Source: an uncultured bacterium
GTDB taxonomy: Bacteria > Babelota > Babeliae > Babelales > Babelaceae
DNA: 64,000 nt
Assembly (NCBI GenBank): GCA_963713855.1
Contig: OY970209.1
Location: 64,001-128,000 of the forward strand
Direction of reading: 5' to 3'
This document shows, piece after piece, positions 184 through 53,896 of the stretch (positions are counted from its first letter, which is position 1; the number at the start of each line of letters is the position of its first letter). Both the position numbers and the translations under genes were made by a program. Below the pieces are notes generated by a model. It saw only the letters and a program-made list of their open reading frames with translations. It was not told the origin of the DNA and did no database searches.

Positions 184-1350
184 ATGCATAAACATCACCT
201 AAAAAAAGCTTTTGCAATCATCCTATCTTTGATACTAGGAAGCGCAAATTATGCTGCCGGATATGCAAACGGCAGGTTTTTTAGGGCAAGATGCTTTCAA
301 GATGAACCCGAAATACCACCTGAAGGATTTTTAAGGACCGTTACCAAGTTTTATCAAACTTCTACGGATACTGCTTTTAACAGCAACGGTAAAAAAGTTC
401 CCCTACTTGCGCTTTATGGACCCGAAACAAGTCCAACCGGTGAATGTAAAAACCTTTTTTTAGATGGGCATTTTTCTTTCTTTGAAACGCAATTTGAAAC
501 CTATTATACTTTTGGCAAGGGATTTTTTGTCCATACGTTTCTCCCTTATTTTTCCGCGCACATAACCGATATTATGCCCTCAAGTTCCTCTGAAAGCTGT
601 AGAGAGGCTTTTGAAGATTTACAAAATACGATTGCAAAAAAGGGCATTACCTTTGAAGCAAGCGATAGGAAAGGAATTGGTGACTTTATCCTTTTTGGGG
701 GTTGGCAAGGAAAAAACTACGACCTATCAATGGTCGATTTCTTAACCGCCCAACTTCAAATTGGTATCCTCTTTCCCACCGCAAAAAGATGCAACATGGG
801 TGAGACGTGCGCGCTCATACCTTTTGGATTTGAACGTACGTGGGCTATCCCAATCGTCACTAACGGTGCTGTGGGCTTTTTGGACTGGCTTACTTTTGGT
901 ATACGTACTGAAACGCTTTTCTTCTTTCCAAGGACAAAGTCAATTGGCATTCGCACTAACGCTTTACAAACCGGCATTTTAAGACTGACGCAGGATCCTC
1001 ATGCACGAATTAAAGAAGGAACACTTTTTGACGTGAGCATATACCTTAAAGCTGACCATTTTATGAAAGGGTTCTCTCTAGCAATAGAATTTACCCACGA
1101 GCACAAGCTTCGCACTAAAATAAGCCCATCAATTCGTGTAGATCCAGCGGCCGTTAACAGCGATCCAATCTTTGCTGGCTGGACGATGAATATATTCCAT
1201 ATCAATGCCGAATATGATTGGTCTAATGAGGATAATCCCTATGGGCCGATTATCGCTTTCAATTACAACTACATCTTAAGCGGTAAACGCATTTTCAATG
1301 CTTCAACATCGGTAGGGAAATTTGAGTTAAGGCTTAGATTCGATTTTTAA
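184..1350 (+). CDS. Secreted hypothetical protein, possible outer-membrane beta-barrel
   Basis: 388 aa ORF, N-terminal signal-like segment, alternating aromatic/hydrophobic strands, C-terminal Phe (LRLRFDF). Confidence 0.6.
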   Translation: MHKHHLKKAFAIILSLILGSANYAAGYANGRFFRARCFQDEPEIPPEGFLRTVTKFYQTSTDTAFNSNGKKVPLLALYGPETSPTGECKNLFLDGHFSFFETQFETYYTFGKGFFVHTFLPYFSAHITDIMPSSSSESCREAFEDLQNTIAKKGITFEASDRKGIGDFILFGGWQGKNYDLSMVDFLTAQLQIGILFPTAKRCNMGETCALIPFGFERTWAIPIVTNGAVGFLDWLTFGIRTETLFFFPRTKSIGIRTNALQTGILRLTQDPHARIKEGTLFDVSIYLKADHFMKGFSLAIEFTHEHKLRTKISPSIRVDPAAVNSDPIFAGWTMNIFHINAEYDWSNEDNPYGPIIAFNYNYILSGKRIFNASTSVGKFELRLRFDF

Positions 1351-1357
1351 GAAAAAC

Positions 1358-1666
1358 AGGGAAGGATACGCCTACGCGGCATCATAAGAGTCATAGTATT
1401 GACTCTTATGAAAGGGCTCATAAGCCTGGACTCAGGCTTTATGACCCTTGACCCACACCCTGCTTAAACTTTTTATGGTTGTTTAATATACCAGAAAGGG
1501 AACCCTTTCTGGTATATGTGCCTAATGAGATAGACCGGTTTTTCCGGTCTATCTCATACACTATAAGTATGTAAGGAGCAAAACAAGAAACAGGTGCAGG
1601 ACGATGTCCTGCCGCTCGACGCGTAGTCGCCTATTTCTCTTTGGCTTACTTAGGAACTCTACCTAG
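1358..1666. repeat. Multi-hairpin dispersed element, copy 1 (MITE/REP-like or structured ncRNA)
   Basis: Stems 1382-1393/1400-1411, 1412-1428/1433-1449 (two bulges), 1486-1500/1503-1517, 1525-1538/1544-1557, 1596-1602/1606-1612; closing IR ctacgcg 1372-1378 / cgcgtag 1620-1626; close homologue at 32123-32397. Confidence 0.9.
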
Positions 1667-2163
1667 AAAGGAAGCTCATCCTCAAAATCTTTAAAAGGTG
1701 GCTCGTCTTTAAACATGTTTGAGCCTGAAGCACTCTCGGTTTTTGGGGCTTGCGGTGCACGACGTGCTCCTGTATTGAAGTCAGAAGGTGCATCTTCCGA
1801 AGAAGCACCTTCGCTCGCCGTATCAGTGGTTTGTTGAGACCCAACAAAAACAACACTTTCTGCAACAATGGTATATCTATTGCGTGGCTGACCATCTGCT
1901 TCTTTCCATGAGTCTTGCTTAAGGCGACCTTCTACAAGAACCTGACGGCCTTTACGAAGATGTTGGGTACAAATATCAGCTAAAGCTCCCCACACTGCTA
2001 CATCGATAAAGCAAACGTCTTGAACCATGGCTCCCGCTTTGTTCTTAAAGCGCCTGCTTGATGCAATTGCAAAGTTGCATACCGATTGACCCATATCGAG
2101 CTTTTTAAGCTCTGGATCGCGGGTTAAATTGCCCATCATAATGATTTTGTTAAAGTTGGCCAT
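1663..2163 (-). CDS. ssb: Single-stranded DNA-binding protein
   Basis: NKIIMMGNLTRDPEL, VEGRLKQDSW, acidic tail ending DELPF. Confidence 0.97.
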   Translation of the reverse strand: MANFNKIIMMGNLTRDPELKKLDMGQSVCNFAIASSRRFKNKAGAMVQDVCFIDVAVWGALADICTQHLRKGRQVLVEGRLKQDSWKEADGQPRNRYTIVAESVVFVGSQQTTDTASEGASSEDAPSDFNTGARRAPQAPKTESASGSNMFKDEPPFKDFEDELPF

Positions 2164-18785: not shown

Positions 18786-20083
18786 CTATCGAGCAAGAGT
18801 TTTTAGTACATGGGCAATTGGGCTCGTCAATGATGAGGCAGCATTTGTGGTACCGCCTGTTACAGTAGTGGTGCCTGTGGCACTTGTGGCGCCCGTCGTG
18901 GTAGAAGGCGTACATCCTACAAGAGTAAATACTGTTACATCCGGTATGCCGCCATTTGCTAATGAACCATAATTAACAGTAACCAAGTATTGGCCCGAAG
19001 GTGAGAATGCTAGTCCCCAAGGATTTGTAGAACCAGCGGGTAATGGGTATGAGGTACCATCACTCAAGGTTCCGTCTGCCGCCACCGCAAACATCGTTAC
19101 ATCATTTGAGCCAGTAGAAGCGACTGAGACGCCCCCATTAGCAGTAACCAAGTATTCGCCAGAAGGTGAGAATGCCAGTGCGTAAGGATTTATAGAACCG
19201 GAAGGTAACGAATATGAAGTACCTGCGCTTAAGATTCCGCCCGCTTCCAACGTAAACACCGTCACTTGATTTGAGCCGAAATCAGCTGTTGCAAGGTATG
19301 TCCCGTTCGGTGAAAATGCTATTGAAGCCGGAGAAGAACCAAGAGGCTGACTAACAGTATTTCCCTGACCTGATAGCGTTCCCGTTCCTAGACTAAATAC
19401 CGTTACACCACTGGGGCAATTGCAGCAAGGGTAACAGCCGAAATCAGCTGTAACAATATATTTTTCATCATGGGAGAAAGCTAGCGAAGTGGGATTCGCG
19501 TCAACAATTGGTATAGCGGAACTTTGTGGACCAGATAAGACTCCCCCTGCTTCCACCGTAAACACTCCTATATCTGCCGCACCATGCGGACCAGCGCCAT
19601 CAGTATAAGCTACGTATGTTCCGGAAGGCGAGAACGTTACGAAGTTGGTTTGAGGGCTTGCTACTAAGCCGACATTGTATCAGCTACCGGCACTTATGGC
19701 ACCTCCAGCTCCAACCGTAAACATGGTTAAAGAGCAAGCAGGACTAATTGTGCCGCCACTAACGTCGTGACTAACAGCAGCTATGTATCCACCAGATGGT
19801 GAAAATGCTGAGAGACTATATCGGCAAGATAAGAGGGTAAAGGATACGGAGTACCAGCACTTAATGCTCCTCCTGATCCCATCGTAAACATTGTTATCTC
19901 GCTGGAACTGCCAATGGCAACGTAGGTGCCAGACGGCGAGAACGCAATTGAGTCAGCAAGAGAAGTACCAGATGGTAAAGGATACGATGTGCCTGATTCT
20001 AGAGAACAAACAGCGTCAGATTGTAAACTCACCATAAGAGGAGATAATGCGCAGATTAAATATGAAATCATGATAATTTTCAT
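18786..20083 (-). pseudogene. Disrupted secreted beta-propeller (lactonase/WD40-like) repeat protein
   Basis: ~45-aa repeats AFSPSGxYLxTAN...VTxF; frameshift near 19810-19825 and in-frame TGA at 19680-19682. Confidence 0.75.
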
Positions 20084-32122: not shown

Positions 32123-32397
32123 CTAGGTAGCTTTCCCTAAATAGCTCAGTCAAAGAGAAATAGGCGCCTACGCGGCGAGCGCTCATAAGCCTGTACACAG
32201 GCTTTATGACCCTTGACCCACTTCTTAAACTTTTTATGTGGGTTTAATATACCAGAAAGGGAACTCCCTTTCTGGTATATGTGCCATGAGATAGACCCGG
32301 TAAACCGGGTCTATCTCATACACAATAAGCATGTAACACTCAAACAACAGGTGCAGGACAATGTCCTGCCGCGCGCCGAGTAGGCGTATTTTTCCCT
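32123..32397. repeat. Multi-hairpin dispersed element, copy 2
   Basis: Core 32181-32372 co-linear with 1416-1615; same stems, different loops; IR cgcctacgcggcgagcg / cgcgcgccgagtaggcg. Confidence 0.9.
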
Positions 32398-32522
32398 CAT
32401 TTTTATTTAGGCACAGAAGCTAGACTTTTGATAATTATTGTTATTGCTCTATTTCTTGAAGCGACCTAGACAGAAAAGCTCTTTAGAGCTAAACTTCTTG
32501 TCGTACAGGCGCAAAGGAAACG

Positions 32523-51617: not shown

Positions 51618-53896
51618 TTAAAGCGAGCTATCTGCGGAAGTAGTCAGTGATTCATCGCCAAAGTTAACACTTCCCGCCCGATGTTTATGCAAGTACTTAT
51701 ACAGTAAGCAAGAAGTGACAGCGCCAGTTACCGCTAAGAGGCCAAATGCTACCGGAACCCCCACCGTCGTTCCTATAATAACGCCCAAAGGCAGATTACT
51801 ACCTCCATCTCCAGTTCCTGTACTTGTACCAAGCAACGGAAAGACTGAAACGTCATTTGATGCCTTATTTGCTGTTACAATAACCATATTTCCACTGCTT
51901 TCAAGAGGTGAAAAAGTTAATGCTTCATCATCACTCGACTGATCAGGCAAATAATAAGAAGTCCCCTGATCTAATATATCATTGATAGAGCTGAAAAGCG
52001 TAATACTATTGGAGCCGCTATTGGCCGTAGCAAGATAGGCCCCATTCGATGAGACCGCAATAAAAACTGGCTCAACAGCGCCTGCAGGTAATGGATAGGA
52101 TGTTCCAGCGCTTAACCTACCTACTTTTATAGGAAAAATTGTTATATCATTAGAGTCACTATTAGCGGTGGCAACAAGAAATTCACCGGTGCTCGTAGGC
52201 ACAAAGACAAGTGACCGAGGCTTTTTAGAACCAGCAGGCAGAACTTGAGATGCTATACTCTTCAACACCCCGTTTGTTGCATTAAAAAGCGTTACGTCAT
52301 TTGAAGCACTATTTGCCGTAGCAAGATACACACCATCAGAAGAAAAAGCGACTGCTACCGGATCCAAAGATCCTGCGGTAATCATAAGAGTGAGCATTCC
52401 CGTAGAGCTTGTCCAACGAACTTGAATATGGTCACATCGTTCGAATTACTATTTGCAAGAGCAAGATATGCATCGTCGGGCGAGAAATTAATTGAAGCAG
52501 GGTTGGATGAATTTGCAGGCAATGCATACGAAATACCACCTGTTAATTGCCCTCCGATCACTTTAAAAAGGGAGACATCATTGGATTTACTATTGGCAGT
52601 GGCTAGATACGACGCATTGTTTGAAAAAGCAAGATCGAACGGGAACAATGAGCCGGAAGGTAAAGGAAAAGATATTGCATTATTGAGCGTACTGTTCGCG
52701 TTCACCGTAAACAATGTTATATCGCTTGAGTTATAATTTGCTGTTGCAAGATACAAACCTATCTGGCAAAAAGTCACTGCGTCGGGTTCACTGATCCAGG
52801 TGGTAAAGGATAAGACCTCCGAGCTTGCTTGAAAACAAGCCAGAGCCGTAAAGACCGTTATGCTATTTGAATTGAAATTAGCAGTTGCCAAATACGCACC
52901 GGAAGGCGAAAAAGTTGCTGATTCTGGATAGGTGGAGCCAGAGGGTAAAGCATAAGAAGCAGCCCCGCTTAATACTCCTCCTGTTTGCACGTTAAATACT
53001 GTTACATCATTTGACTGAGCGTTAGCAGTAACCAAGTAAGTGTTCGAGGGCGAAAAGTTTACTGAGATAGGACCTAATGAACCAGCGGTAACGGATATGA
53101 AGCGCCATCATTCAAGGTTCCTCCTGCTTGCATGCTAAACACAGTGACATTAGCTGAAGTGCTATTAGCAGTTGCCAGATATGCACCAGATGGCGAAATT
53201 GCAATTGATTCCGGACCTGTCGAGCCAGCAGGTAAAGGGATAGGAAATACCGGTACTTAAAACTCCTCCTGTTCCCACCGTAAACACCGTAACATCATTG
53301 GAGAGGTCGTTAACAGTGACCAAATAATTGCCCGATGGTGAAAATGCTACTGAAGAGGCCCCGAGAAACTCCGGGCAAAGAATACGTCGTCCCTCCGCTT
53401 AATACTCCTCCTCCTACTGTAAATATGGTCACATTATTTGAAGGGCTATTAGCAGTGGCCAAATAATTGCCGGATGGGGAAAATGCCACTAACTGGGATC
53501 AGTAGGCCCCGAAGGTAAAGCATACGAGTCCCTCCGCTCAATACTCCGCCTGTCACGGTAAATATGGTGACATCGCTTGAGCTGGCATTGGCAGACACTA
53601 AGTAAGCACCTGAAGGCGAGAACTTTAGCGAAACAGACTGATTACTACCAGCTGGTAAAGATACGAGTACCGCACACTTAAGGTCCCCCCTGTTTCCACC
53701 GTAAACATTGTTACATAGGATGGATTGAAGGCGTTTGATGTAGCTAAATAGGTGCCTGAAGGCGAGAATGCTACTGTGGTAGGACCAGGCCCGCCGCTAA
53801 AGGGTAAGATATACCTGATTGCAGGGAACAAATAGCACCAGATTCTGAACTCATGAGAAGAGATGAGAGCAGGCTCAATACTATAGTAATTTTCAT
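51618..53896 (-). pseudogene. Multiply frameshifted beta-propeller repeat surface protein with C-terminal TM helix
   Basis: ATG at 53896 after GGGGAG, signal MKITIVLSLLSSLL; more than 10 repeats SYxLPxGSxxPxxxxFSPxGxYLATANxxSNDVT across several frames; TM then YKYLHKHR. Confidence 0.75.

Follow-up and report, generated by a model that had tools for sequence, protein, structure and literature searches.

Insertions of the IS110/IS1111 type lie in one orientation within their target and go with an IS110 recombinase. Non-autonomous derivatives of IS200/IS605 carry two different subterminal hairpins and no terminal inverted repeat, with ends as in a Y1 element. IS427-group elements are characterised in part of PMC3281130 as 830-865 bp long, with 12-21-bp repeats and mostly 2-bp duplications. 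An orientation bias tied to single-strand or fork-linked movement is ascribed to IS200/IS605 and IS91 in part of PMC3971601, where IS5b-d are placed among the families with little orientation bias.

The repeat analysed here has two layers: an outer shell, in which the ends of an old insertion sequence survive in decayed form, and within it a hairpin-rich DNA cassette which is exchanged between copies. Two copies are located in the window, i.e. the whole stretch of 64,000 nucleotides under analysis. The genome (G000) is a single contig of 1,521,901 bp (1.52 Mb) with 41% G+C and is 91% complete.

The original prediction described a repeat pair ~31 kb apart in the same orientation. This pair is real: positions 1413-1639 match positions 32178-32394 at 82% over 230 nt (E 1.5e-57). 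The sequence shows the additional base pair of one stem as well as the loop and linker differences listed at the time (gact/taca, aa/aact, ttttt/taaa, gat/aat), and the proposed absence of a gene agrees with the lack of any ORF of at least 100 aa inside either window copy. The element placed at 1358..1666 exists within slightly wider limits (1335-1665 and 32124-32422). Its ‘terminal IR’ corresponds to true ends which form two nested sets, not one. Furthermore, the unit had been treated as a single element present twice. A BLAST search of the genome with the core returns 21 copies, and shell and cassette differ in history. The parts of the two window copies are given in Table 1.

Table 1. Parts of the two window copies (positions within the window).
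Copy	Feature	Position	Strand	Details
1	Shell end A, decayed left IS5/IS427-type end	1335..1368	+	Begins at TA; 11 substitutions/35 sites
1	Left inner inverted repeat, cassette boundary	1369..1380	+	CGCCTACGCGGC
1	Optional palindrome H0	1382..1411	.	Copy 2 without H0
1	Left REP-type hairpin	1412..1454	+	AAGGG..CCCTT then GACCC
1	Hairpin H2	1486..1517	.	15-bp perfect stem
1	Hairpin H3	1525..1557	.	14-bp perfect stem, then A-rich linker
1	Right REP-type unit	1593..1629	+	GGTG, 7-bp hairpin 1596-1612, mini-hairpin 1617-1629
1	Shell end B, right IS end	1630..1665	+	Closes in TA
2	Shell end B	32124..32164	-	Left of cassette
2	Cassette	32165..32386	+	Inner IR, left hairpin, H2, H3, right REP-type unit; orientation as copy 1
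2	Shell end A	32387..32422	-	Right of cassette; closes in TA

Both window copies fold far below their shuffles (z -9.6 for copy 1 and z -13.4 for copy 2). The final 16 bases of an ORF (184-1350) lie within shell end A of copy 1, and the TA of its end B forms part of the ssb stop codon (gene at 1663-2163, minus strand). The cassette of copy 2 is located downstream of tilS. A second palindrome (1418-1444) is nested in the left-hairpin loop of copy 1; in other copies this loop is short or partly duplicated. The mini-hairpin of copy 1 has 4 bp and a G..A loop, and also serves as the right inner inverted repeat. It belongs to the right REP-type unit, which is the part common to other phyla. Between the two window copies the outer ends have changed places, whereas both cores run in the same direction. 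Copy 1 carries end A on the left and copy 2 carries end B on the left, hence the cassette sits in opposite orientations within the two shells.

Genome-wide, 20 of the 21 loci are full and one is cut after H2. All copies are intergenic, several overlapping the end of a neighbouring gene. From the outside inward, each comprises an outer end A (~37 bp) or B (~40 bp), the inverted repeat of Table 1 and the core. The full copies include 12 with A on the left and B on the right, 6 in the reverse arrangement and 2 with one unreadable end; 18/20 are clearly A+B and none of the 20 is A+A or B+B. The profile of end A matches 17 element loci and 2 other places, that of end B matches 19 and 4, and all other matches have E values of at least 1.4. 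For the 11-base inner motif, 50 matches with up to one mismatch are found in G000 compared with 7.3 expected. When G000 is compared with itself, neither an IS nor a second dispersed non-coding family is seen; the remaining repeats are tRNA-like or encode paralogous proteins. Among these proteins, a very large family with ~47-residue repeats, which we take to be beta-propeller-like, occupies 18,786-20,083 and 51,618-53,780 of the window and many loci from 600 kb to 1,450 kb; several of its copies look fragmented.

The shell originates from an insertion sequence. IS5-family elements of the sister genome (G001) and of G032 begin with CTAGG(C/T)TCTGT. A 19-base pattern of end A has matches in 2 of 261 genomes, and the sole exact match, in the sister genome, is the left end of an ~810-bp element with terminal inverted repeats (L318:1501-2313, G001:C2). 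The match itself is not independent, since the pattern was derived from end A; its being an IS end is. This element harbors an IS427-type transposase split into two frames with a stop between them, both of which match NF033580 (IS5 family transposase; IS5_3) with E values of 1.4e-45 and 1.4e-20. Consensus A is identical to its left end at 22 of the first 23 bases, and this end is the best scorer among 31 IS427-like loci (E 2e-4). A second IS (L341) shows a 23/32 match to end A. At the other end, consensus B read inward spells PISLWLTI-stop, and transposases of the sister genome terminate in SILLWLKN-stop (nearest IS) and VFIWLR-stop. End B is thus the right IS end, including the last codons of the gene. 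It matches the right end of the sister IS loosely (13/18, by eye), which makes this IS a relative, a cousin, and not the mover.

A terminal TA is present at 14/20 A ends and 13/20 B ends, compared with 38% and 33% in random alignments, but at both ends in only 7/20 copies. Shell A diverges from its consensus at 120/652 sites (18%; 18/20 copies) and shell B at 118/751 (16%; 19/20 copies). Divergence amounts to 22-25% at positions 3-16, where the transposase would bind. Some of this decay may reflect overlap with neighbouring coding ends. Searches for IS4/5 and IS427 proteins detect no IS427-type transposase in G000 (91% complete). The shell patterns have no match in metagenomes, and the 10 raw viral matches are accompanied by one further match by chance. 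With ends homologous to IS5/IS427, a short length, no coding capacity and many copies, the shell has these features of an IS427-type MITE; judged from its sequence, it probably works like one and was one. The predicted MITE-type element is borne out for the shell, and its non-autonomous mobile nature is supported.

The cassette is 211-311 bp long and has its own 12-bp inverted repeat at both ends. From left to right, its modules are the inner repeat, optional H0, left hairpin, AT-rich linker, H2, H3, A-rich linker and right unit. The loop of the left hairpin may hold another palindrome, and the right unit combines a 7-bp hairpin with a mini-hairpin with a G..A loop. H0 is found at the left end in 9/20 full copies and at the right end in 2. 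In 4/20 copies the right loop contains a 58-base insert. Two of these (at 431 kb and 1,197 kb) display an open frame of 91-104 codons on the opposite strand, which is probably spurious.

Stems diverge from the consensus at 37/979 sites (3.8%) and the inner repeat at 12/439 (2.7%), compared with 73/593 (12%) and 60/667 (9%) in the long linkers. Within H2 and H3, we count 8 double-sided paired changes (four of them the same change), no double-sided unpaired change and 13 single-sided changes (5 of them G-T). Copying from arm to arm could yield double changes but on its own would presumably not lower the stem rate, so that some constraint or biased conversion is needed. The stem constraint of the original prediction is supported in this respect.

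Its proposal of a multicopy structured RNA has so far found no support. On the element, the best Rfam score (28.8 bits) stays below the threshold of 40; elsewhere in the window, Rfam identifies three tRNAs. Furthermore, neither window cassette contains a promoter-like site, both cassette strands fold equally well as DNA, and cassette orientation is unrelated to the local gene strand (12/21). In contrast, the REP/REPIN-like character is confirmed for the interior, which consists of two inverted palindromic units with a variable spacer and is extragenic and multicopy. The GT[AG]G foot 5′ of the hairpin, typical of REPINs, is absent from the cassette. The only GTAG lies within the 3′ mini-hairpin, and in relatives the first T of this tetranucleotide may be G, C or A. 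In addition, no RAYT gene flanked by the repeat was found. Since these two tests failed, we do not file the cassette as a REPIN, although it is REPIN-like.

Shell and cassette have decayed unequally: divergence from consensus is 16-18% in the shell, 9-12% in linkers, 3.8% in stems and 2.7% in the inner repeat. Two copies, one at 1,197 kb and the other at 1,504 kb, have 0/153 differences in the core and 23/70 (33%) in the shell; they also have opposite shell orientations and different modules. The next closest core pair differs at 7/148 sites. The case for recent exchange rests mainly on the identical pair, which an assembly or polishing error could mimic. Across copies, core distance tracks neither orientation (p=0.48) nor shell distance (rho -0.04). 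Orientation changes 6 times on the core tree compared with a shuffled mean of 6.0, the tree being poorly resolved (1/17 branches starred).

The sister genome contains 46 related cassettes, which are laid out alike but differ in stem sequence and lack a shell. In G000 itself, a shell-free remnant of the sister type (G000:C1:157,880-157,995) is located between convergent ORFs; it retains two hairpins and the right end unit with a doubled tail, and its orientation fits the replichore rule described below. These shell-free forms argue that the cassette is older than the shell. Insertion sites are not shared with the sister genome: 35 of 42 flanking proteins are found there, of which 4 have an element no more than 1.5 kb away, in only one case at the same end of the gene. 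In the sister genome, short GAATT/GAATC runs often precede the cassettes and the terminal mini-hairpin is often stacked in several copies after them, and other GC-rich hairpins (CCTTGGCGAAG type) are inserted in their loops.

Cassette orientation follows the replichores of G000. The cumulative GC skew is lowest at 395,551, next to a cluster of DnaA boxes at 395,585, and peaks at 1,196,910. In 19/21 copies, the cassette read as in the window is on lagging-strand sequence (p=2.2e-4), a value to be read knowing that the pattern was noticed in the data before the test and that the copies are not independent trials if they convert each other. The proportion is 18/20 (p=4e-4) without the terminus copy and 20/22 with the remnant added. 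Shell orientation is not related to the replichore in this way (13/21, p=0.38). Of all genes, 655/1,239 are on the leading strand. The local gene strand (12/21) does not account for the polarity. A fork bias in IS200/IS605 and IS91 and little bias in IS5b-d fit a biased cassette within an unbiased shell. Compared with a uniform spread, the copies are shifted towards oriC (KS p=0.025), at a mean of 0.35 of the replichore.

In other genomes the polarity is weaker or absent. The skew of the sister genome is noisy and its cassettes give 29/46 (p=0.10), or 30/46 (p=0.054) with the call of one copy revised; a skew cut chosen afterwards gives 18/25 (p=0.043). A cruder, local-skew test assigns 5 of 19 clostridial loci to the lagging and 7 to the leading strand, and 4 and 8 of 30 loci in Planctomycetota, the rest being unclear. 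A count of 9/9 ‘lagging’ among the loci of G266 and of metagenomes was discarded as support: skew over 3-6 kb follows the gene strand, and the strands in G266 lack a two-block pattern.

These data bear on a rival reading, an ordinary MITE with a single ancient inversion, whose replichore pattern would be due to chance or to chromosome rearrangement. The IS427 ends and TA flanks are what it predicts, and both the weak or absent bias elsewhere and a test suggested by the data speak in its favour. It is nevertheless improbable in our judgement, given the probability of the pattern (p=2e-4, or 4e-4 for the 18/20 copies outside the terminus), the scatter of orientation over the core tree, and the much heavier decay of the shell than of the core, at its highest (22-25%) where a transposase would bind.

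A bias towards one strand could also be selected by the host. The cassette would then be a domesticated signal with a strand-specific job, either in lagging-strand priming or restart, like the single-strand origins of phages and plasmids, or as a terminator or stabiliser between convergent genes. Its stems are three times as conserved as its linkers, and its architecture, but not its stem sequences, is common to the sister genome. Moreover, 11/21 copies are located between convergent genes compared with 19% of gene pairs (p=6e-4); such sites are, on the other hand, also those where insertions are best tolerated. A tail-less form of the 7-bp hairpin occurs in intergenic DNA of a phage group near a portal gene (L132:3001-3024 and ~17 similar viral loci) and directly after a Zot-like gene on another phage contig (L206:3001-3024). 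The positions are not conserved, as seen from the 4/35 flanks with a nearby element in the sister genome. Likewise, the element is found by DNA search in 2/61 related genomes and its end pattern in 6/261 genomes of the order. On balance we regard a host function as distinctly unlikely.

The end unit with its tail also occurs in other groups. The genome collection contains 56 such loci, in Clostridia, Planctomycetota, Chloroflexota, a delta proteobacterium and Dependentiae. Some form inverted pairs with a short spacer of variable sequence between them, others stand alone or are arrayed head to tail, and five such genomes hold 3 to 123 units each. In viral contigs the long end pattern has no match, and matches of the short pattern are mostly chance or tRNA-like. 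BLAST against plasmids yields matches of 22-41 bp only. Among the papers that literature searches brought up, subscription journals aside, no title or abstract describes this unit or the inversion of a REP-like cassette within IS ends.

The original prediction also invoked a trans-acting enzyme, which is so far unsupported in G000. Family-by-family searches of this genome (91% complete) give no match to Y1, IS630, IS4/5, IS427 protein, IS110, RAYT or RT. They show one tyrosine recombinase and one GIY-YIG domain, the latter in a 434-aa frame. Six to ten GIY-YIG matches each, mostly in short frames, are seen in G022, G027, G019, G035 and G007; such matches in relatives may mark another repeat-associated family. 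Inspected by eye, the neighbours of the 56 genome loci comprise no recurring enzyme among the matches listed, and those of 19 metagenome loci none either. The Clostridiaceae genome with 123 units gives no Y1 match, none of 13 Y1 loci has a full unit alongside, and the IS200-type genes of G001, G032 and G064 are without the unit.

Two known types of insertion do not fit. An IS110/IS1111-type insertion in a fixed target disagrees with the two orientations seen and with the lack of a PF01548 match in G000. A non-autonomous IS200/IS605 derivative would agree with the orientation bias in G000 but not with a 12-bp inverted repeat at both ends or with Y1 loci devoid of the unit.

Site-specific homing by a putative HUH-like enzyme has to be weighed against the same data. 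Short empty IS427 MITEs would have come first, and the cassette, mobile in its own right, would have been inserted at one central site of each, in the orientation which the fork imposed at that moment. A single step would then account for the random orientation of the shell, the fork-linked orientation of the cassette and the younger cassette. CG is present at the two junctions in either orientation, the sequence on the B side already resembles a cassette end, and the inverted pairs and head-to-tail arrays of other phyla resemble REP clusters made by an enzyme. Occupancy would, however, have to be 21/21: an empty-shell profile run across G000 finds no empty shell, its best match outside the elements having an E value of 0.75. 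The negative searches for Y1, RAYT, IS110 and RT in G000, the 123 clostridial units without Y1, the 0/13 Y1 loci with a full unit and the lack of a recurring neighbour enzyme at the 56 genome loci (among the matches listed) and 19 metagenome loci also weigh against homing. We consider it rather unlikely.

Our best explanation, to which we attach about an even chance, is a composite: an IS427 MITE shell and a REP-like cassette which is reworked at the replication fork by template switching or gene conversion of the host. In a strongly supported first step, an IS427-type IS5 element would have lost its transposase gene, and a REP-like cassette already present in the genus would have taken its place. 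The composite would then have spread as a MITE to ~21 TA sites, with the transposase acting in trans, before its ends died and decayed. In a second step, supported by sequence, the cassette would have remained active by itself. Its identical 12-17-bp inverted repeats at both ends would allow it to flip or to be overwritten by another copy with the shell untouched. Such events would shuffle the optional hairpins between copies and between ends.

The third step would place this rewriting on single-stranded DNA at the fork; here the pattern is observed and the mechanism is our inference. If the cassette folds there as a cloverleaf with the inner repeat as its closing stem, one of its two orientations with respect to the moving fork would be favoured. 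Host replication or recombination appears a slightly likelier agent than an HUH-type nuclease, because no such enzyme is found in G000 and one exchange looks recent. Against the composite stand the lack of an enzyme for the second and third steps and of an empty site for the first. A bolder version, which we think unlikely, makes the cassette a non-coding replicator of a new kind. As a cloverleaf of single-stranded DNA, it would home into existing copies at the fork and rewrite them by means of its palindromic ends only, using a dead transposon as landing pad.

The repeat bears on how REP-like repeats spread and stay uniform without a RAYT. The fossil frame around each cassette records the original insertion and its orientation, so that later flips and overwrites can be read copy by copy. 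It also separates arrival, by a DDE transposase, from maintenance, by a fork-polarised process, and offers a short substrate for a direct test. If the replicator reading were true, the end unit, present in at least 5 distant bacterial groups with no link to RAYT, would mark a widespread REP-like family moved by a novel enzyme or by the replisome itself.

How does the repeat compare with known systems? With the IS5/IS427 MITEs covered in parts of PMC3281130 and PMC3184786, it shares a short, non-coding body, IS-matching ends, mostly 2-bp flanks (putatively TA here), the lack of a transposase inside and many intergenic copies, often at stop codons. Unlike in these MITEs, the ends are the least conserved part, and the interior is bounded by a terminal repeat of its own, is found either way round, is exchanged among copies and is shell-free in the sister genome. 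REP, REPIN and BIME elements with their RAYT (TnpA-REP), as presented in portions of PMC6006769, PMC3733652, PMC8266576 and 10.1101/2021.07.10.451892, likewise have two inverted hairpin units with a variable spacer, are extragenic and enriched between convergent genes, and form tandem arrays in some hosts. The present cassette differs from them in being enclosed in IS ends, in lacking a 5′ GTAG or CGTC foot, in its length (211-311 bp with conserved inner hairpins compared with ~100 bp) and in that no RAYT was found in G000 or beside the unit. Lastly, the symmetric inverted ends of the cassette and the absence of Y1 matches in G000 set it apart from IS200/IS605 and IS91, as these are described in part of PMC3971601, but it shares with them hairpins at its ends and an orientation tied to the direction of the fork.
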